A stretch of DNA of 64,000 nt. It comes from Bacteroidota bacterium. Its GTDB lineage: Bacteria > Bacteroidota > Bacteroidia > 2-12-FULL-35-15. Both the position numbers and the translations under genes were made by a program. Under the pieces are notes generated by a model. It was not told the origin of the DNA, did no database searches, and saw only the letters and a program-made list of their open reading frames with translations. Where the stretch lies: NCBI GenBank assembly GCA_025963715.1, contig JAOQAG010000051.1:77125-141124 (forward strand), given 5' to 3'. Below, piece by piece: positions 40,070-51,750 of the stretch (within the stretch, counting starts at the first letter, position 1; every line of letters begins with the position of its first letter).

Positions 40070-43000
40070 ATGGCTTTCAATAAAAGAGATAACAAACTAA
40101 AAAGCAATTTCTCCAAAATTACCATCAGCCTTGCATCACCGGAAGCAGTTCTGGAGCGTTCAAGCGGTGAAGTAGTTAAGCCGGAAACAATCAATTACAG
40201 AACTTACAAACCAGAGATGGGCGGTTTGTTCTGTGAGCGTATTTTCGGACCGGTAAAAGATTGGGAATGTGCTTGTGGAAAATATAAACGCATCCGCTAC
40301 AAAGGCATTGTTTGTGACCGTTGTGGAGTGGAAGTAACAGAGAAAAAAGTACGTAGAGAGCGTATGGGACACATCAATTTGGTGGTTCCTGTTGCGCACA
40401 TCTGGTATTTCAAATCGTTGCCAAATAAAATCGGTTATTTGTTGGGCTTACCAACAAAAAAACTGGACATGATCATTTACTACGAGCGTTATGTTGTAGT
40501 AAACGCAGGTGTTAAAGCGGTTGACGGGATCAATTACCTTGATTTCTTATCCGAAGAAGAATACCTGAACATCCTGGATACATTGCCGAAAGACAATCAA
40601 TATTTAGATGATACAGATCCGAATAAATTTATCGCGAAAATGGGTGCTGAAGCGTTACAATCGCTTTTAAGCCGTGTTGATCTTGATAGTTTATCATTCG
40701 ATTTGCGTCACAAAGCAAATACTGAAACATCTCAACAACGTAAAAACGAAGCGCTAAAACGTTTACAGGTTGTGGAAGGTTTCCGTCATGCCAACCAGCA
40801 CGTTGAAAACCGTCCTGAGTGGATGATCGTTAAAATTGTTCCGGTTATTCCGCCGGAATTGCGTCCGTTGGTGCCATTGGATGGCGGCCGTTTTGCAACT
40901 TCCGATTTAAATGATTTATACCGTCGTGTTATTATCCGTAACAACCGTTTAAAACGTTTGATCGAGATCAAAGCTCCTGAAGTAATCCTGCGTAATGAAA
41001 AACGTATGTTACAGGAAGCTGTGGATTCATTATTTGATAACTCACGTAAATCGAATGCAGTGAAAACTGAATCGAACCGTGCGTTAAAATCATTATCGGA
41101 TTCATTAAAAGGTAAACAAGGCCGTTTCCGTCAGAACTTATTAGGTAAACGTGTGGATTATTCAGCACGTTCGGTAATCGTCGTTGGACCGGAATTGAAA
41201 TTGCATGAGTGCGGATTGCCAAAAGATATGGCAGCTGAACTTTTCAAACCGTTCATCATCCGTAAAATGATTGAGCGTGGTGTTGTAAAAACAGTAAAAT
41301 CTGCGAAAAAAATCGTTGATAAAAAAGAACCTATTGTTTGGGATATTTTAGAGAATGTGTTGAAAGGACATCCTGTTCTTTTGAACCGCGCTCCGACATT
41401 GCACAGATTAGGGATCCAGGCTTTCCAGCCAAAACTGATCGAAGGAAAAGCGATCCAGTTGCATCCTTTGACCTGTACAGCGTTTAACGCCGATTTCGAT
41501 GGGGATCAGATGGCAGTTCACGTTCCGTTGGGACATGCTGCAATTTTGGAAGCTCAATTATTAATGCTTGCATCTCATAACATCTTAAACCCTGCGAATG
41601 GTGCACCGGTAACGGTTCCATCACAAGACATGGTGCTTGGTCTGTACTACATGACCAAAGGAAAGAAAAATACTGCTGATGAAGTAGTAAAAGGTGAAGG
41701 CTTAACATTTTATTCTCCTGAAGAAACAATTATCGCGTACAACGAAAAACGTGTTGATTTACATGCGTGGGTGAAAGTTCGTTTACCGGTAAAAGAAGGT
41801 GATAAAACAGTTAACAAACTGATCGAAACAACTGTTGGACGGATCCTGTTTAACCAGGTGGTGCCGAAAGAAGTTGGTTATATCAACGAATTGTTGACAA
41901 AAAAATCATTGCGTGATATCATTGGAAGTATCGTGAAAGAAACTGGTATGGCTAAAACGGCTAAATTCCTTGACGACATGAAAACATTAGGTTTCATGAG
42001 CGCATTCCGCGGAGGTTTATCCTTTAACTTAGGTGACGTAATGGTTCCTGAGGATAAAGATAAAATGATCGCTGATGCGAATACGCAGGTGGATGAAGTG
42101 GTTGGAAACTATAATATGGGTTTCATCACAAACAACGAGCGTTACAATCAGATCATCGATATCTGGACACATACCAACTCACGGATCACTGCGAAAGTAT
42201 TGAATACACTGACAAATGACCGTCAGGGCTTCAATCCTGTTTACATGATGCTTGATTCCGGTGCCCGTGGTTCTAAAGAGCAGATCCGTCAGTTAGGCGG
42301 GATGCGTGGATTGATGGCGAAACCGCAAAAAGGTGCAGGGGGAGGAGAGATCATTGAGAATCCGATCATCTCTAACTTTAAAGAAGGTTTGTCCATCCTT
42401 GAGTATTTTATCTCTACCCACGGTGCGCGTAAAGGTCTTGCGGATACGGCGTTAAAAACTGCCGATGCAGGTTACTTAACCCGTCGTTTGGTTGACGTTG
42501 CTCAGGATGTGATCATCACTATTGAAGATTGCGGAACATTGCGCGGATTGATCGCGACAGCGTTGAAGAAAAACGACGAGGTTGTTGAATCATTATACGA
42601 CAGAATTATTGGTAGAACTACGGTTCACAATGTATACAATCCTTTAACCGGCGACATGATCATTGGTGCAGGTGAAGAGGTAACTGAAGATTACGCGAGA
42701 ACAATTTCTGAATCTCCAATTGAAGCAGTTGAGATCCGTTCGGTATTAACCTGCGAAAGCAAAAACGGTGTGTGCGCGAAATGTTACGGACGTAACTTAG
42801 CTACAGGCCGCATGGTTCAACGTGGTGAGGCAGTAGGTGTTATTGCAGCACAATCAATCGGTGAGCCGGGTACACAGTTAACGTTACGTACATTCCACGT
42901 GGGTGGTACAGCATCTAACACTGCTGCATCTTCTAAACTGGAGTCGAAATACGACGGGATCATTGAAGTGGATGAATTGAAAACGGTAAAACGTAAAAAT

Positions 43001-44362
43001 CCTGACGGTAAAGTTGTTGATGTTGTTATTGGACGTTCGGCTGAGATGCGGATCATCGATGCAAACACGAGAATCGTTTTAACAACTGCAAACATTCCTT
43101 ACGGATCACAGGTTTACATCACACACTTAGCGAAAGTTAAAAAAGGTGATTTGATTTGTGACTGGGATCCATACAATGCGGTAATCGTTTCTGAATTTGC
43201 AGGTAAGATCGAATTCGATAATATCGAAGAAGGTATTACTTTCCGTGAAGAATCGGATGAGCAAACCGGATTTAAAGAAAAAGTAATTGTTGAGAGCCGC
43301 GATAAATCAAAAAATCCAGCGATCAAAATTGTTGCAAACAAAGATACATTGCGTACTTACAACATTCCGGTTGGAGCGCACGTAATTGTGAACGACAGTG
43401 CTAAAATTGATGCAGGTCAGATCCTTGTTAAGATCCCTCGTACTGCCGGTAAAACGGGAGATATCACGGGAGGTTTACCACGTGTTACTGAGCTTTTCGA
43501 AGCACGTAACCCAAGTAACCCGGCTGTGGTTTCAGAAATTGATGGTATCGTTTCATTTGGTAAAATTAAACGTGGTAACCGTGAGGTGCATGTTGAATCA
43601 AGAACAGGTGAGAAAAAAACATATTTGGTTGCATTATCAAAACATATCCTTGTTCAGGAAAATGACTTTATCCGTGCGGGTGAGCCATTATCCGACGGTG
43701 CTATCACGCCAAGCGATATTCTTGCAATCAAAGGGCCTACAGCTGTTCAGGAATACTTAGTGAACGAGGTGCAAGAGGTATACCGTTTACAAGGTGTGAA
43801 GATCAACGATAAACATTTTGAAGTAATTGTTCGTCAGATGATGCGTAAAGTCGACATCAGCGAAGCTGGTGACACTATTTTCCTTGAGAAACAATTGGTG
43901 AACAAAGCTGAGTTTATGAGAGAGAACGACTCATTGTACGGTAAAGTAATTGTGGTTGAACCAGGTGATTCACCATTATTCAAAGCCGGTCAGATCATTA
44001 GTGCACGTCGTTTACGTGATGAGAATTCCTCATTGAAACGCAAAGACATGAAGTTAATTGAAGCGCGTGAAGCAATTCCTGCAACATCTCAACAGATCCT
44101 GCAAGGTATCACACGTGCATCGTTACAAACAAATAGCTTCATGAGTGCTGCATCCTTCCAGGAAACAACGAAAGTGTTGAATGAAGCTGCAGTAAGCGGT
44201 AAGGTGGATGATTTGTCGGGATTAAAAGAAAACGTAATTGTTGGACATTTAATTCCTGCAGGTACAGGATTGAGAGCATACGAAAAAATGATCGTAGGTT
44301 CACAGGAAGAGTACGACAAACTGATGGCTTCCAAAAAAGAAGCATTGGAAGAAGAAGCATAA
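40070..44362 (+). CDS. rpoC: RNA polymerase beta' subunit
   Basis: Zinc finger, [28 protein letters not shown]. Confidence 0.99.
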
Positions 44363-44378
44363 TCTTTAGCTTATAAAT

Positions 44379-44417
44379 AAAAAAGAGGGACCGCATTTCT
44401 GCGGTTCCTCTTTTTTT
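44379..44417 (+). terminator. rpoC terminator
   Basis: AAAAAAGAGGGACCGC...GCGGTTCCTCTTTTTTT. Confidence 0.85.
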
Positions 44418-44483
44418 ATATTTACTCCACCTCCATGTGGAGTGGGGGAAGCAGACAGATACCACAGTCAACTCCATGACAGC

Positions 44484-44737
44484 TTAGGAGATTATAAACA
44501 AGTTTTTGAATATTATAAAGATCACATCGTCGCAAGTAGCGACCGAAATGAACTTCGGATTCACTGAAAAATTATTTAAAGCTGAATGCAGAACGTAGAA
44601 CAAATCTGAAATTGCAGCGCTACTTTTCGTAAGTCCAAACACAATGATAACCACAGATCAAATATTGTAAAAAATTAGGATTAGAAGGAAAGAACTCTCT
44701 TCTGAAATTTGCCATCCAATCTAAAAATCCGCTTTAG
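44484..44737 (+). pseudogene. Remnants of a TPR sensor fragment and a NarL/LuxR response-regulator HTH
   Basis: LGDYKQVFEYYKDHI (TPR-like), then across two frameshifts KSEIAALLFVSPNT / DNHRSNI / KKLGLEGKNSLLKFAIQSKNPL*. Confidence 0.7.
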
Positions 44738-44784
44738 GATTTTTCAATCCATTTTCAAATTCCTTTTCTGTGCTCAAACACAAT

Positions 44785-44807
44785 ATAGGGGGTAACCACT
44801 ATTGTGC
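44785..44807. promoter_or_regulatory. Imperfect palindromic operator upstream of module 1
   Basis: ATAGGGGGTAACCACTAT between the LuxR remnant and the module promoter. Confidence 0.4.
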
Positions 44808-44879
44808 AGGATTTTATTTAGCCGAATCTTTGTTACCGGAACAAGGATCAGGACTATTTGATCCATTAAACTAACTCAC

Positions 44880-45365
44880 ATGATAAAAACAAAAAAATTA
44901 ACCTTCCTTTTTTGTTTCTTTTTCACTTTGATAACTACTGTCAAAGCGCAAAACGGAACAGATGCTTCAGGGGGCGATGCATCCGGTAGCGGTGGTTCAG
45001 CAAGTTATTCAATCGGCCAGATCGATTACATTACCGAACAGGAAACCGGCGGAACGATCACGCAGGGATTGCAGCAACCTTTTGAAATTTCCGTGATCAC
45101 GGGAATTGAAAATACGGCGATTAATTTATCGGCTACGGTATATCCGAATCCAACTGTTGACATGGTGACACTGAGCATTGAGGGCACTTCAACGGAGAAC
45201 ATGACTTTTATTCTCTGTGACCTGCAGGGCAAGGTGATCAGGAATGAAAAGTTAAGTGCTGATCAGACAATTATTTCGATGGCAGAATTAACCAAGGCAA
45301 CTTATTTAATAAAAGTGCTCGATAATAGTAAAGAAGTTAAAACATTTAAAATCATTAAAAACTAA
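44880..45365 (+). CDS. Small secreted protein with T9SS type A C-terminal sorting domain (module 1)
   Basis: Signal peptide, ~50 aa GG.A.G.GGSASYSIGQ...QGLQQPFEI segment, then CTD ([23 protein letters not shown]). Confidence 0.88.
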   Translation: MIKTKKLTFLFCFFFTLITTVKAQNGTDASGGDASGSGGSASYSIGQIDYITEQETGGTITQGLQQPFEISVITGIENTAINLSATVYPNPTVDMVTLSIEGTSTENMTFILCDLQGKVIRNEKLSADQTIISMAELTKATYLIKVLDNSKEVKTFKIIKN

Positions 45366-45371
45366 CACAAC

Positions 45372-47507
45372 ATGAAAAAAATAATACTCAGGTTAAGCGC
45401 TGTTATCTTTCTTAGCTTTCAGCTCTCGGTTAGCTTTGCACAGGCGCCACAAAAGATGAGCTACCAGGCGGTGATCCGCAATGCCGGAAATGCGTTAGTT
45501 ACTTCTTCACCGATTGGAATGCAGATAAGCATCCTGCAAGGTTCTCCAACGGGAACGGCGGTATATGTAGAAACACAAATGGCTACAACAAATACAAACG
45601 GATTAGTGACAATTGAAATCGGGAACGGAACTCCTGTAACAGGAACGTTTTCTTCTCTCGACTGGTCTGCGGGCCCGTATTTCATAATGACAGAAACCGA
45701 TCCGACAGGTGGAACAACTTATACAATTACAGGAACAACCCAGCTAATGAGTGTGCCTTATGCATTGTACGCGGCAACTTCAGGTAATGGTGCCGGTCCG
45801 GCAGGTCCGCAGGGCTCTGCGGGAGTTGATGGAATTAACGGTAACGATGGGGCAAATGGTTTGGATGGGGCCACCGGACCTACAGGAGTGCAAGGCCCGA
45901 TGGGACCAATGGGAATGCCCGGAATGCCGGGAACACCAGGTACTAATGGTGTTACGGGAGCAACCGGTGCGCAGGGGCCTGCGGGAGCAGACGGAGTGAA
46001 TGGTAATGATGGAGCCGATGGCTTAAATGGTAATGATGGAGTGAACGGAACAAATGGTATTGCTGGAGCTACGGGTCCAACAGGAGCTCAGGGCCTAATG
46101 GGACCAATGGGAATGCCGGGAACACCGGGAGCCGATGGGGCCACAGGTGCAACAGGAATAGCCGGTGCAACCGGCGCTACAGGAACGGCGGGTTCACCCG
46201 GATCAATGGGAATGCCCGGAATGCCGGGAACCCCGGGAGCTAATGGAGCAGCAGGGGCTACAGGTGCAACAGGAATAGCAGGTGCAACCGGCGCTACAGG
46301 AGCGGCGGGCTCACCCGGATCAATGGGAATGCCTGGTATGCCGGGAACCCCCGGAGCTAATGGAGCAGCAGGGGCTACAGGTGCAACGGGTGCAACAGGA
46401 ATAGCAGGCGCAACAGGAGCAGCAGGCTCACCCGGATCAATAGGAATGCCCGGAATGCCGGGAACACCCGGAGCTAATGGAGCAGCGGGTGCAACAGGTG
46501 TAGCCGGTGCAACCGGAGCTGACGGAGCAGCAGGCGCTACAGGAACAGCAGGGGCTACAGGTGCAACCGGAGCTACAGGTTTGTTGGCAAACGGCGCAGC
46601 AGCAGGTAATACTCCTTATTGGAATGGTACATCGTGGATAACCAATAGCAGCAATATTTATAATAATGGAGGAAGTATAGGTATCGGAACAACAACACCC
46701 AGCACTGCAAAACTGGTAATTGCAGGCTCTGCGGGTAGCCCCGGGATTGATTTGTCAAGCACTGATCAGTACGCCAACCTTCGGGTCATTCAAAATACAA
46801 ACGGAATTCCTGATAAAGATATGTATATTGGACTTGGAAGTGGAACGACTTCAAAACTTCATTTCTATTCCAACAATGCCGAATTGATGACATTAGCCGG
46901 TTCCAATACTAAAATTAACGGCCAGCTGGAAATAGCTACAACAACCGGCGCCATATTGCTTCCAAGGCTTACAGCAATAGAAAGAACAGCTTTAACAGCG
47001 CCGGTACCGGGTATGATGATTTATAACAGCAGCACCGGCAAGTTTCAGGGCTATGCTACAGCTCTTGGTGTTGAGGCACTTGATCAAAGTGCGACCATTT
47101 CAAATAGTCAGTTTTCCGGCTCAAATATCGGCCAATCGTTTATTGCAGGAGTAACAGGCGAATTATCGAAAGTAGATGTAACAGTATCTTTTGTAAGCAC
47201 TGCCGGTTCATGCTCAGTTAATGTATATGCCGGAACAGGCTCGGGAGGTACTTTATTAGGTTCTTCTGCAGCCGTTACAATTTCTTCAACCGGAATAAAG
47301 TCATTTGTATTAACGGGGATAAATGTAACTGCAGGCAATACATATTCATTTATTCTTGTAAATTCAGCTAATTGTGCCTTTTCAACAGATAATACTAATA
47401 GCTATCCTTCCGGAAGTTTCACTACAGTCATTCCAACCCCAATCTGGGACTTTTGGTTTAAAACATATATTAAGCCGGCAGTCAACTCCTGGGTTGATTT
47501 TAACTAG
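45372..47507 (+). CDS. Secreted collagen-like trimeric fibre protein (module 1)
   Basis: Signal peptide, [14 protein letters not shown]...SVPYALYA domain, ~87 uninterrupted G-X-Y triplets, GIGTTTP and LPRLT..ER...GMMIYN motifs, beta-rich tip domain. No T9SS CTD. Confidence 0.88.
45795..46586 (+). repeat. Collagen G-X-Y coding repeat with ~117-bp higher-order units
   Basis: Units start near 46143, 46260 and 46377. Confidence 0.85.
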
Positions 47508-47525
47508 CACAAGAATTGAACATTT

Positions 47526-47565
47526 AAAAAGCCCGTCGGATCTTTCTTCCGGGTTTTTTATTTTT
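47526..47565 (+). terminator. Terminator of module 1
   Basis: AAAAAGCCCG...CGGGTTTTTT. Confidence 0.7.
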
Positions 47566-47632
47566 AGCACCTGCAATGATAAAAGACGGGTGCTTTTAAT
47601 GGTTGTGGTTTATTCTAAGAAATAATATTGAT

Positions 47633-47669
47633 AAAAAGCTCTTCAGGACAGACGTCCGGGGAGCTTTTT
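47633..47669. terminator. Orphan second terminator-like hairpin
   Basis: AAAAAGCTCTTCAGGAC-AGAC-GTCCGGGGAGCTTTTT with no adjacent gene ending here. Confidence 0.55.
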
Positions 47670-47700
47670 ATTTGTTCGTACAGGTGTGATTTGTTCTTTT

Positions 47701-47750
47701 GACTCATTGTACGGTAAAGTAATTGTGGTAGAACCAGGTAATTCTCCATT
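47701..47750 (+). repeat. 50-bp copy of an internal rpoC segment (43928-43977)
   Basis: 47 of 50 bases identical by direct alignment. Confidence 0.92.
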
Positions 47751-47778
47751 CTTTTTCTCTTTATTGCGATTGATTTTC

Positions 47779-47813
47779 TTTTCTGTCGTTGGAGTACATT
47801 TTTCTGTCGTTGG
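47779..47813 (+). promoter_or_regulatory. LytTR-type direct-repeat operator upstream of module 2
   Basis: TTTTCTGTCGTTGG twice with a 21-bp period, upstream of a TACTTTCG -7-like element at 47847-47854. Confidence 0.6.
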
Positions 47814-47877
47814 TACCAAATAATTAATTACTGTATGTCTGATGCTTACTTTCGGCATATTATTTATACTGCGTACG

Positions 47878-48360
47878 ATGACAAAAACAAAAACGATTTT
47901 ATTTTTCAGCTTGTTTCTTTTTGCTGTAACAGCGCTTAAAGCACAAACCGGAACAGTTGCCGCCGGCGGCAATGCCACGGGACCGGGAGGTTCCGTAAGT
48001 TATTCGATCGGGCAAACCGATTACATTACTGAAAGCGGTAAGCCCGGAACTGTTTCACAGGGTTTGCAACAGCCTTACGAAATTCAGGTAATGACAGGAA
48101 TTGGAGTTACGGGAATAAACCTTTCGGCAACAGTTTATCCAAACCCTACAACAGATGTGGTTACGCTGAGCGTGCAGGATCTTTCGGTTGCGAACATGAG
48201 CTATGCTGTTTATGATATACAGGGAAAGCTAATCATGCATGATAAATTATCGGGAAGCTCAACCGTTATTTCTTTTGAAGGGTTAAGCAAGTCGGGTTAC
48301 TTTATAAAAGTGCTGAGCAATAACAGTGAAGTAAAAACATTTAAGATCATTAAAAATTAA
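47878..48360 (+). CDS. Small secreted protein with T9SS type A CTD (module 2, paralog of 44880-45365)
   Basis: ATG at 47878 aligns with the paralog start. Same [15 protein letters not shown] segment and CTD. Confidence 0.88.
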
Positions 48361-48368
48361 AAAGCAAT

Positions 48369-51248
48369 ATGAAAAAAACACTCCTTAAAATTGTAACAGT
48401 TCTGCTGTTGAGTTTTCAATTTATAACTGCATCAGCGCAGGCTCCTCAAAAAATGAGCTACCAGGCGGTGGTGCGCAATGCAGGTAACACACTTGTAGCA
48501 TCATCGCCGGTAGGGATGCAAATCAGCATCCTGCAGGGCTCGCCTGCAGGAACCCCGGTGTATGTGGAAACACAAACTGCAATGACAAATGCAAACGGAT
48601 TGGTAACAATTGAAATAGGAAATGGAACTCCGGTTACGGGAACGTTTGCCGCGATTAATTGGGTAGCAGGCCCTTATTTTATAATGACAGAAACTGATCC
48701 TGCAGGAGGAACTGCTTATTCGATCACAGGAACAACTCAATTGATGAGCGTGCCTTATGCATTATATGCTGAGACATCCGGTAACGGAGGTGTTGCAGGT
48801 GCTACAGGTGCTACAGGGGCAACTGGTGCAACAGGTTCTATGGGACCGATGGGTATGGGAATGCCGGGGATGCCGGGGATGCCAGGTTCAAATGGAGCAA
48901 CAGGAACCACCGGTACAACCGGTGATGCCGGGATAAATGGGATGGATGGAGCAACCGGAGTTACCGGGGCAACAGGTACAGCAGGAACGAATGGAACTGA
49001 TGGCGCAACCGGTGCTGCCGGTATGAACGGGATGGATGGAGCAACCGGAGTTACCGGAGCAACGGGTACAGCAGGAACGAATGGAACTGATGGCACAACA
49101 GGTGCAACCGGTGCTATGGGGCCTATGGGAATGGGTATGCCGGGTATGATGGGTGCTGCAGGTGCAACCGGGTCAACAGGTGCAAATGGAACGACAGGTG
49201 CAACCGGTAATACAGGTGCAACCGGAGCAACGGGTGCAAATGGAACTAATGGAATCGCAGGAACAACGGGGGCACTGGGAGCCACTGGTGGAACCGGATC
49301 AACAGGAGCAACCGGAAGTACGGGCGCAACGGGTATAGCTGGTGCAAATGGTACCAACGGAACGAATGGTGCCACCGGAGTTACAGGTGCTAACGGAATC
49401 GCAGGAACAACGGGGGCACTGGGAGCCACTGGTGGAACCGGATCAACAGGAGCAACCGGAAGCACAGGTGCAACCGGTGCTATGGGTCCAATGGGGCCGA
49501 TGGGAATGGGTATGCCGGGCATGATGGGTGCCGCAGGTGCAACCGGATCAACGGGTGCAACTGGAACGACAGGTGTAACAGGTAATACCGGTGCAACCGG
49601 TGCTATGGGTCCAATGGGGCCTATGGGAGTGGGTATGCCGGGTACGATGGGTGCCGCAGGTGCAACGGGATCAACGGGATCAACGGGTGCAACTGGAACG
49701 ACAGGTGCAACAGGTAATACAGGTGCAACTGGTGCAGCAGGTGTAGCAGGAACGAATGGAACTGATGGCGTAACCGGATCAACGGGTGCAACAGGCTTTA
49801 TAGCAAACGGTTCCTTGGCCGGTAATACACCGTATTGGAATGGTTCTGCGTGGATAACAAATAGCAGCAATGTATTTAATAATGGTGGAAATGTGGGAAT
49901 CGGAACGACAACTACAGCTGCCAAATTACACATTAAAGGAAATGCGGATAATACGCAGCTGATTATACAGGGAAATGCCACACAAAGCATTTCAAGCCCG
50001 TTAATAAGGCTCCAGAATGCTGCAGGTACCGATCTGATGTGGATCAGTTCGGATAATACTTCAAATACATTTGTCGGCCTTAATACCGGAACCGCAAATA
50101 CCGGAACGGCCAACACATTTATCGGCAGTAGTGCAGGGCTTTCAAATACCAACGGATCATCAAACACCGCATTAGGAACAGGTGCTTTAAAGTTTTCCAT
50201 AAATGGTTCCGCGGATGTTGCTATAGGCTCGTTAGCGCTGCAATCAAATACATCAGGCAATTCAAATACCGCTGTTGGCTGTACCGCGCTTTTTGGGAAC
50301 ACTACAGGATCAAATAATTCAGCAACTGGTTATTACAGCCTTGCTCAGAATACAACCGGAGGATTCAACATCGCGTCAGGTTCTTATGCACTCTATAATA
50401 ACACAACTGGTCTAGCAAATACAGGTATCGGGTACAAAGCTTTGTATAGCAATGTTTCCAGTAACTACAACACTGCAACAGGCTATTATGCGCTTTATTC
50501 CGCAACGGGAGCGGGAGCCAATAATACGGCAACGGGCTATAACACGCTTTACGGTACCACTACCGGAACAAATAATACGGCTATGGGATTCTATGCCCTT
50601 TCTAATAACATAACAGGAAATAATAATTCAGCTTTCGGAAACTTTGCCGGCCCGACTGTAGATAACCTGAACAACACAACTGCATTGGGAAATAACGCTA
50701 TTCCCACGGCAAGCAACATGGTGAGGATAGGAAACAATGCAGTTACGGTAATTGAAGGCCAGGTGGCTTATTCTTTCCCTTCTGATGCACGTTTTAAATA
50801 CAATGTGCAAAGCAACGTACCCGGACTGGATTTTATCATGAAGCTGACACCTGTTACTTATTATTTTGATGAACAGGGTTTGCAAAAATTCTCTACAACA
50901 GGCGTGATCGATAAAAGCTTCAGGGAAGCTGCAAAAAACCAGGAACTGCATACAGGCTTTCTTGCACAGGATATTGAGAAAGTTTGTAAAGATTTGAATT
51001 TTAAATTTGATGGCGTGCATACGCCAACTTCCGACAAGGACCATTACAGCCTTGCTTACAGCCAGTTTATTATGCCATTGGTTAAAGCGGTGCAGGAACA
51101 GCAGGTGATCATTGAAAAGCTGGAAAAACAGAATGCGGAAATTGTTGCTGCTCAAAAAGCAATGATGGAACGCCTGATTCAGTTAGAAACTACTGCAAGC
51201 AACAAAACCGAAACTGCAGGTGCTGTTACTGCGGAAATAAAAAAATAA
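48369..51248 (+). CDS. Secreted collagen-like fibre protein with ~14-residue NTA.G..AL repeats and a C-terminal S74 intramolecular chaperone domain (module 2)
   Basis: Same N-terminal domain as 45372, ~109 G-X-Y triplets with four GM/GV interruptions, NT(A/F).G..AL..NTTG repeats, SDARFKYNV...[22 protein letters not shown] and a coiled coil. Confidence 0.88.
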
Positions 51249-51267
51249 TAAACGAATATTTTCGTTT

Positions 51268-51302
51268 AAGATCCCGGGCAATTTTTTGCCCGGGATTTTT
51301 TG
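51268..51302 (+). terminator. Terminator of module 2
   Basis: AAGATCCCGGGCAA-TTTT-TTGCCCGGGATTTTT. Confidence 0.8.
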
Positions 51303-51438
51303 CTTTGAAAAAGAAGTGAAAAACGGTTTGCTTTAATTCTGCGGTGATCGACGATCTGCAATCATTAGTCGAGAGAGCTGTTTGTACATTTTAATTATTG
51401 ATAAAAACACTTAACTTTACGATTCAAAAAAAATAATC

Positions 51439-51750
51439 ATGGAAGAGCAAAACGAAAATCAGCTAAATATTGAATTGTCTGAAGAGGTTGCAGAAGGAAT
51501 TTATTCCAACCTGGCGATCATTACCCATTCCACCTCCGAATTTGTGATCGATTTTATCCGCATGATGCCGGGAGTGCCAAAAGCAAAAGTAAAATCCCGG
51601 ATCGTATTAACGCCTCAGCATGCAAAACGATTAATGAAAGCACTGAAGGATAACATCAGCAAATTTGAGCAGCAGAACGGCGCTATTAAAGATACGGATA
51701 TGCCGAACGGTTTACCGCTGAGCTTTGGCGGCCCAACTGCACAGGCATAA
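51439..51750 (+). CDS. DUF3467 family protein
   Basis: QLNIELSEEVAEGIYSNLAIITHS.SEFVIDF, KSRIVLTPQHAKRL, FGGPTAQA. Confidence 0.9.
   Translation: MEEQNENQLNIELSEEVAEGIYSNLAIITHSTSEFVIDFIRMMPGVPKAKVKSRIVLTPQHAKRLMKALKDNISKFEQQNGAIKDTDMPNGLPLSFGGPTAQA

Follow-up and report, generated by a model that had tools for sequence, protein, structure and literature searches.

The window analysed here, a 64,000-nt stretch of a Bacteroidota genome (GenBank assembly GCA_025963715.1, contig JAOQAG010000051.1, positions 77,125–141,124), carries two tandem gene pairs (44880–47507 and 47878–51248), each encoding a small protein with a type IX secretion system (T9SS) C-terminal domain (CTD), followed by a long collagen-stalked fibre without one. 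The preferred reading, given a probability of roughly 0.65, is that the T9SS delivers the small protein, which serves as adaptor or anchor for fibres resembling the mosaic adhesive trimer (MAT) fibres of Bdellovibrio, each pair forming a two-component surface-fibre module. It stands on the anatomy of the pairs, the families to which their products belong, a near-obligate adjacency, the absence of CTDs from the fibres, the T9SS machinery of the same genome and a predicted 3:1 interface. Actual binding, the export route (with the T9SS step deduced from the CTD), the chemistry of anchoring and the ligand are put forward conditionally.

As the original prediction had it, the same pair is present twice, with gaps of 6 nt (pair 1) and 8 nt (pair 2) between the small gene and the fibre gene, and all four plus-strand open reading frames (ORFs) exist as described. 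The first small gene, small1 (44880–45365, + strand, 161 aa), encodes a signal peptide (aa 1–23, ending ..TVKA↓Q), a short N-segment (aa 24 to ~86; 44949–45137) and a type A T9SS CTD (aa 87–161; 45138–45362). The second, small2 (47878–48360, + strand), has 160 aa when counted from the Met that aligns with the start of small1, within an ORF that is open from 47842 (172 aa). It is built alike, with a signal peptide ending ..ALKA↓Q, an N-segment at ~47944–48132 and a type A CTD from 48133, and the two proteins have 96 identities over 161 positions (E 1e-67). Their single Pfam domain is Por_Secre_tail (PF18962; 42.6 and 47.6 bits, cut-off 27), and TIGR04183 is likewise above its cut-off of 23, at 43.8 and 43.4 bits. 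Some ~60 residues are left once signal peptide and CTD are set aside, in keeping with the minimal cargo protein that had been proposed, and their consensus is ..SGG.A.G.GGS.SYSIGQ......G....QG.QQP; small1 is matched by the N-segment profile at E 1e-23. Both signal peptides, read from the sequence, have a basic N-terminus, a hydrophobic stretch and a ..VKA↓Q or ..LKA↓Q end, and are free of Cys.

The fibre genes are fibre1 (45372–47507, + strand, 711 aa) and fibre2 (48369–51248, + strand, 959 aa). Each product begins with a signal peptide (aa 1–23) and continues with a MAT-like N-domain (aa 24–141, 45441–45794, in fibre1; aa 24–137, 48438–48779, in fibre2), the N-terminal 139 aa being 78% identical. 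The collagen stalk that follows consists of 88 unbroken G-X-Y triplets in fibre1 (aa 142–405; 45795–46586) and of 111 triplets with four short breaks in fibre2 (aa 138–478; 48780–49802), with Pfam Collagen scores of 138.1 and 147 bits. A neck of ~45 residues common to both, opening AGNTPYWNG, starts at aa 411 in fibre1 (to aa ~445; 46602–46706) and at aa 484 in fibre2 (49818). The shared N-domain, stalk and neck had all been described beforehand, as had the unrelatedness of the tips, which show no mutual similarity beyond the neck. Fibre1 ends in a tip at aa 446–711 (46707–47504), and fibre2 in Asn/Thr/Gly-rich repeats and an S74 intramolecular chaperone, with SDARFK at aa 805 (50781), that runs to the C-terminus. 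Peptidase_S74 (PF13884) is found in fibre2 only (aa 805–876; 35.8 bits, cut-off 22), and its SDARFK (aa 805–810) fits the SDxxxK motif named by Caulton et al. (2024; PMC10769870). By analogy with other collagen and S74 proteins, the fibres probably trimerise. Neither fibre gave a CTD match at E ≤ 0.1 in the Pfam scan and neither signal peptide contains a Cys, both as originally stated; nor is LPXTG present in the two sequences as read.

The source genome (4.9 Mb, 98.5% complete) has nine fibre N-domain genes. A profile search of all its six-frame ORFs of at least 45 aa (E ≤ 1) found exactly six N-segment genes, every one of them adjoining a fibre gene, and eight of the nine fibre genes belong to a locus with an N-segment gene. 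A profile is needed for this, a single-sequence search with the small N-segment having recovered just three of the six copies. Besides the two window pairs, there are two loci with one small gene followed by two fibre genes (C15 and C5), one with a single pair (C35), and one in reversed order (C44), where the gene for a 1404-aa fibre comes first, then that for a 269-aa protein with an N-segment and a type B CTD (CHU_C, 80.6 bits), and last PorP_SprF (272.9 bits). The original prediction had overlooked both this second kind of carrier of the N-segment, a type B CTD protein accompanied by PorP/SprF, and the frequent sharing of one small gene by two fibre genes. The T9SS itself is represented in the genome by PorU (1334.7 bits, cut-off 420), PorV (503.8, cut-off 250) and SprA (2625.3, cut-off 200). 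Because two distinct T9SS devices for sorting or anchoring carry the same passenger, and a CTD-less fibre is its neighbour every time, the job of the passenger would seem to concern the fibre, and this is the strongest genomic argument for such a role.

The pairing extends well beyond this genome. One genome per species was scanned with a pattern; at least 598 stretches matched, of which at least 578 were confirmed relatives, and the best 80 loci, spanning Flavobacteriales, Bacteroidales, Chitinophagales, Cytophagales and others, were examined. Of these, 64 have a same-strand N-segment ORF directly upstream, and three have one directly downstream. An unbiased sample of 150 other Bacteroidota genomes, evenly drawn, was also searched, and 50 of them contain the fibre N-domain. 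A narrow N-segment profile (A4) had matches in 10 of the 150, with 17 of its 18 matches adjoining a fibre match. Sixteen apparently solo fibres from 13 genomes were then inspected. Divergent partners were found for 13 of them, eight of type A and upstream, and five of type B and downstream, with PorP/SprF, with or without OmpA, next in line; Pfam confirmed the CTDs of the eight of these 13 that were submitted. Since 13 of the 16 had divergent partners, the apparent solo fibres are mostly a sensitivity artefact of the narrow profile. A broad profile (34 rows) had matches in 24 of the 150 genomes, all fibre-positive, and all 32 matches lay within ~600 nt of a fibre match when the positions were compared by eye; in the 100 fibre-negative genomes of the sample it found nothing. 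Six of the 34 rows come from sampled genomes, and those detections are by construction, while absence elsewhere is not. Co-occurrence of the two families beyond chance, as originally envisaged, is borne out by these counts.

A type A or type B CTD is carried by every partner examined. Type B adaptors score 72.5–98.6 bits for CHU_C at L098, L101, L104 and L108, with PorP_SprF at L098 and L101. In three of them (L101:3749–4960, L104:4259–5584, L108:2797–3501) SprB repeats, and in one case a weak PKD match, can lie between the N-segment-like start and the CTD, and such adaptors would add a stalk below the fibre. In family f25 (L099, L100, L103, L105, L106, L110) there is a single pair at a conserved site between RlpA/SPOR-like and rhomboid-like genes. 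The fibre N-domain was found in 16 of 22 genomes of this family and the partner profile in 15 of 22, and the conserved site and wide occurrence together suggest a core rather than an accessory function. An iterated local hidden Markov model (E < 1e-3) recovered the six f25 partners and one type B partner, and missed those at L101, L102, L104 and L107–L109. The N-segment likeness at these loci, and at L113, L114 and L119–L122, is at the level of motifs seen by eye, which is also how distant fibre subfamilies were seen to adjoin CTD proteins with an N-segment-like motif. Within a restricted length class, 1,707 partner relatives were found. Carriers of the module include the cultured strains Flavobacterium bizetiae CIP 105534 (L090), F. 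chungbukense CS100 (L069) and Snuella sedimenti CAU 1569 (L082), which puts genetics within reach.

Contact between the two products is predicted by co-folding three copies of fibre1 aa 24–165 (63-row alignment) with one small1 N-segment (57 aa, 13-row alignment). Three runs gave ipSAE values of 0.87, 0.86 and 0.86, against 0.01, 0.00 and 0.02 for three controls, with partner pLDDT of 75–77 and at least 87% of contacts common between runs. The original prediction had supposed an interface between the small protein and a trimer of N-domains, and the model agrees with it (ipSAE 0.86, against 0.02 for the best of the three controls). N-segment residues 1–48 are in contact with all three fibre copies, at fibre residues 6–17, 51–60, 82–88 and 95–107, and most tightly where fibre residues 8–13 (the YQAVIR strand) meet partner residues 19–23 (SASYS). 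In the model, the most conserved motif of each family thus meets the other, 1:3, at the trimer base, and this arrangement fits the loci in which one small gene stands ahead of two fibre genes. In the calibration of the complex prediction, 58 of 80 solved complexes reached the mark, as did 2 of 110 mismatched pairs, counts that are only roughly valid for custom alignments and 3+1 chains.

The fibre N-domain has no match in Pfam, and a Foldseek search of the PDB with an AlphaFold2 model of the fibre1 N-domain (pLDDT 83.9) found nothing at E ≤ 0.001, the best match being a generic beta-sandwich (7kjk_A3, E 4.8e-3, TMq 0.37). The absence of a PDB homologue is reported for the MAT N-domain too (PMC10769870). 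All nine N-domains of the source genome match NF053851 (Bdello_MAT_N; best E 6.4e-14), with no other family at E ≤ 0.01. The 60-bit cut-off of that family is not reached (42.8 bits for the fibre1 N-domain, 34.7 and 32.1 bits for the whole proteins), which therefore places them on a separate branch. An hhalign comparison of these nine N-domains with 17 Bdellovibrio-like MAT N-domains gave a probability of 98.3% and E 1.7e-14 over 121 columns, which take in the YQ..R strand and the SVP(Y/F)A end. On these profile comparisons, the fibres are a Bacteroidota branch of the MAT superfamily, and the resemblance to Bdellovibrio fibres first suggested in passing turns out to be real homology of the N-domain. 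The Bdellovibrio-like genomes, 12 of 13 with MAT_N above its cut-off, were reached through L016 (JANOOI010000319.1, 1728 nt), a contig labelled as part of a Bdellovibrio sp. metagenome-assembled genome (G151). It carries a typical Bacteroidota pair, with a fibre N-domain 72% identical to the query, while the remainder of that genome has true MAT_N matches above cut-off; the contig looks like a mis-binned Bacteroidota fragment.

The likeness to the MAT fibres of Bdellovibrio bacteriovorus (Caulton et al., 2024; PMC10769870) extends to the overall plan: a signal peptide, then at once a beta-rich N-domain of ~115–130 aa, a trimeric stalk and an exchangeable tip, with S74 (SDxxxK) and non-S74 subtypes and many paralogues per genome. 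The window fibres differ in having a stalk of collagen rather than beta-helix and in coming from a T9SS-bearing soil Bacteroidota host with no sign of predation, and Bacteroidota loci carry a dedicated T9SS-CTD partner. No N-segment homologue was found by profile in five Bdellovibrio-like genomes (best E 0.27). What the invariant MAT N-domain binds is left open in that study, and the string “Bacteroid” occurs 0 times in its main text. Passages of a 2026 review (PMC13689555) add nothing on a MAT anchor.

The N-domain family is large: its profile matches at least 39,576 cluster representatives (50% identity) at E ≤ 1e-3, 14,643 of them at E ≤ 1e-30. In the best 150 proteins listed, the domain is almost always at the protein start, directly after a signal peptide. 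Two proteins repeat it within one chain (P0121, 916 aa, with six matched stretches; P0122, 548 aa, with three), and these fit poorly with a simple picture of one base per fibre. Por_Secre_tail and CHU_C are found in none of the 76 complete fibres from the 80 loci (E ≤ 1e-4), and a local type A CTD model matched none of 137 fibre ORFs; judged by their sequences, the fibres cannot be ordinary T9SS cargo. What follows the N-domain is mosaic across the 76, in line with the constant base and variable tips originally proposed. Domains include Collagen (18), Lcl_C (13), Peptidase_S74 (11), Fib_succ_major (10), DUF7151 (4), YadA_head (3) and fn3-type (3), and more rarely phage Collar (2) and one each of phage fibre repeats, Laminin_G_3 and a depolymerase C-domain. 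The fibre1 tip recurs on other N-domain proteins with different stalks or none (P0132, P0268 and others), and the fibre2 tip is widespread on other fibres, for example at L107, L075, L030, L017 and L074. A model of the fibre1 tip (pLDDT 62.2) has weak PDB matches to jelly-rolls resembling carbohydrate-binding modules (7zvo, E 4.2e-4, TMq 0.22, TMt 0.41), a hint of glycan binding rather than a finding.

In the mechanism proposed, both proteins would enter the periplasm via Sec. The fibre would trimerise through its collagen, and in fibre2 also through S74, with the ~115-aa beta-rich N-domain as trimer base. One N-segment would then be clasped by three N-domains, through beta-strand augmentation with the invariant YQAV.R strand, and the adaptor CTD would next engage the T9SS. 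Beyond this point two sub-models are weighed almost evenly. The fibre trimer could cross as a hitchhiker, or the adaptor could be a surface socket, displayed first, with the fibre leaving by another route and docking later; the former is slightly favoured because the fibres have no other recognisable export signal. At the surface, as transferred from knowledge of the family, cleavage of the type A CTD by PorU would leave the ~60-aa adaptor attached to lipopolysaccharide (LPS) or the outer membrane; in P. gingivalis, type A cargo is reportedly tied to the outer membrane after PorU cleavage. By the same kind of transfer, the neighbouring PorP/SprF-like protein would hold a type B adaptor in place. 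The fibre's variable tip would bind a target, probably a glycan or another cell surface.

Each element has relatives among known systems. Type A cargo processed by PorU and linked to LPS (e.g., gingipains) shares the signal peptide and Por_Secre_tail/TIGR04183 domain with the small proteins, and PorU, PorV and SprA are present; it differs in that the passenger of the small protein is ~60 aa with no enzymatic or adhesive domain, its predicted role being to hold another protein. Linkage of type A CTD cargo to anionic LPS, and association of type B cargo with PorP-like proteins, are described by Gorasia et al. (2022; PMC9143113). The SprB/SprF-type cargo treated there resembles the sister architecture seen at C44 of the source genome and at L098, L101, L104 and L108, which has a CHU_C CTD, sometimes SprB repeats, and PorP_SprF, with or without OmpA, directly downstream. 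The difference is that the functional passenger, the fibre, is here a separate CTD-less polypeptide, and the CTDs of the window pairs are of type A. Folded and very large proteins are moved by the T9SS (PMC9251779). Hitchhiker export in the Tat pathway and peroxisomal import is comparable in that a signal-less folded partner would be carried by a signal-bearing subunit through a translocon accepting folded proteins (PMC9251779, PMC4273604), although machine and membrane are different. Collagen-like adhesins (Scl1/Scl2, Legionella Lcl) and phage fibres also have long G-X-Y stalks, with Lcl_C tips in 13 of the 76 fibres and S74 on fibre2; the window fibres have no LPXTG anchor. Membership of the Lcl/LPXTG adhesins was considered and rejected, since the matches to adhesin_Lcl (125.7 bits, cut-off 500) and SclB (126.7, cut-off 325) are to collagen repeats only. 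In the text of open-access papers and bioRxiv preprints, neither the small family nor the pairing nor a MAT anchor was found described.

Several observations weigh against an adaptor role through the T9SS. Thirteen of the 80 loci show no N-segment ORF, although two of these have less than 350 nt of upstream sequence, and 26 of the 50 fibre-positive genomes in the sample have no broad-profile partner match. When six of these 26 were inspected by eye, a divergent partner stood beside the fibre in five (G059, G067, G071 and G107, and G143 for an extra fibre in a hit genome); at G087 the locus, read by eye, has no partner beside the fibre. The fibres of L095–L097 have no partner nearby, and in the source genome the C8 fibre (C8:10475–12007) is the sole fibre gene without an adaptor gene in its vicinity. 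Its divergently oriented neighbour encodes a 993-aa protein with an end resembling a T9SS CTD. The C8 fibre may use an adaptor in trans. Fibres without a nearby partner mean that a cis partner is not obligatory, so that a partner in trans or some other route is needed. Among the six pairs of the source genome, partner and N-domain co-vary only modestly (Mantel r 0.57, equalled or exceeded in 18 of 720 permutations); the signal is driven by the window's two pairs and is not strong enough to be relied on. The co-fold gives model confidence obtained with our own alignments and with 3+1 chains, outside the calibration of the tool. No report of hitchhiking through the T9SS was found in the same literature. 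Finally, Bdellovibrio MATs reach the surface without a T9SS (PMC10769870), and because of this the fibre family can evidently arrive there by another path.

This last point also supports reading the small protein as an assembly factor only, its N-segment nucleating or registering N-domain trimerisation in the periplasm and then being discarded, with the fibre leaving independently of the CTD. The predicted 1:3 stoichiometry, with a peptide buried among three chains, suits a registration peptide, and some fibres have no cis partner. A periplasmic chaperone, however, needs no CTD, yet all partners examined have one of type A or type B, and those of type B keep a PorP/SprF gene; trimerisation, moreover, is already provided for by collagen and S74. 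Such a role is considered improbable. In Flavobacteriia, some type A CTD cargo is not cell-bound, and the adaptor and fibre might instead form a complex that is secreted rather than anchored, the small protein escorting the fibre out through the T9SS and the fibre being released to the medium or onto vesicles as a soluble adhesin or lectin. Only ~10–15 residues lie between the buried N-segment and the CTD, which would suit release. Surface retention is indicated instead by the type B architecture with its cognate PorP/SprF(-OmpA) (PMC9143113), and a binding tip at the far end of a long stalk is how cell-borne adhesins are built (PMC10769870); release is given about as little credence as an assembly factor. 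That the genes are merely co-regulated neighbours, two independent surface proteins of one island that make no contact, is very doubtful. Adjacency by itself is weak evidence, and 7 of 44 blind-picked neighbour pairs pass the complex-prediction test, but here it holds for 32 of 32 matches in the 150 genomes and 6 of 6 in the source genome, across deep divergence and two CTD types, with the partner in 0 of 100 fibre-negative genomes and co-fold values of 0.86 against 0.02. The idea that the locus is left over from a prophage or tailocin, as a tail fibre and the chaperone that assembles it, was rejected despite the phage-type parts (S74 chaperone, collagen-like stalk, phage collar, phage fibre repeats), given the Sec signal peptides on both proteins, the T9SS CTD on the partner, an N-domain placed almost always right behind a signal peptide at the protein start in the best 150 proteins listed, and a position between rpoC and a DUF3467-like housekeeping gene, where phage genes are absent from the immediate surroundings.

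In the Bdellovibrio-like genomes a lipoprotein of ~100 aa (lipobox ..GC/AC) is encoded directly upstream of a MAT gene (L128:11236–11526; G159:C1:3073735–3074025), with relatives at L137:2106–2405, L138:1824–2117 and L139:1965–2264. A six-row profile of it has 14 matches (E ≤ 0.002) in 11 of 13 genomes, eight of them directly upstream, on the same strand, of a MAT_N match, and the lipoprotein is a candidate MAT surface anchor. Its mature part has a three-strand motif (..VSGS.Q...GY.V..SVG...GYKV...VQG) that resembles the N-segment. Homology of the two is not supported, hhalign having aligned the expected motif at a probability of 2.4% and E 0.02. A wider and more tentative version of the adaptor reading, on balance thought unlikely, would make the ~50-residue plug the general socket partner of the whole MAT superfamily, on three anchors (a type A CTD with LPS, a type B CTD with PorP/SprF, and the Bdellovibrio lipoprotein), with the fibre trimer hitchhiking in Bacteroidota. 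If true, this would be the first instance of T9SS piggybacking, and it would name the element on the Bdellovibrio surface by which the prey-recognition fibres are held.

The fibre locus lies between rpoC (40070–44362) and a DUF3467-like gene (51439–51750). It is limited upstream by a strong terminator-like hairpin 3′ of rpoC (44379–44416, + strand; 17-bp stem, then a T-run). Terminators had been predicted after each pair. The one closing the locus after pair 2 stands up well (51268–51299, + strand; 14-bp stem), whereas that after pair 1 (47536–47552, + strand; 5-bp stem with three GC pairs, then a T-run) is weak and unconvincing alone; the terminator scan total of nine sites is not above shuffles (7.1 ± 2.3). 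TAnnTTTG, the Bacteroidota −7 consensus, is present in neither of the regions upstream of the pairs, which are mutually dissimilar, and a sigma-70 promoter scan was not above its shuffles. A minus-strand ORF of 515 aa, rich in Pro, Val and Ala, runs through the collagen region of fibre2 (48755–50302), and similar antisense ORFs are found in other collagen stalks of the same genome; rather than a gene, this one is a by-product of the codon periodicity of G-X-Y repeats. The gap from rpoC to the DUF3467-like gene (44363–51438) is 7,080 nt here and holds two modules. Among 12 relatives searched, the two genes are on one contig in seven (G165–G168, G171, G174, G175). The gap is 91–223 nt in four of the seven, contains a single small-plus-fibre module in the congener G167 (L142), and unrelated genes in G171 and G175, and is a variable insertion site.

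Taken as a whole, the adaptor reading joins known kinds, MAT fibres and T9SS cargo, through a mechanism that is specific and easily tested. At present, T9SS cargo is identified by the CTD that its own chain carries, and an adaptor in trans would be a second way to load or decorate the Bacteroidota surface. If CTD-less fibres are served by a mini-cargo, CTD-based secretome predictions would therefore miss a whole adhesin class. The N-segment would also be a testable candidate for what the invariant MAT N-domain binds, the predicted contact using YQ..R, the one strand conserved between both phyla, and the constant base with its plug resembles a natural display scaffold for exchanging binding tips.

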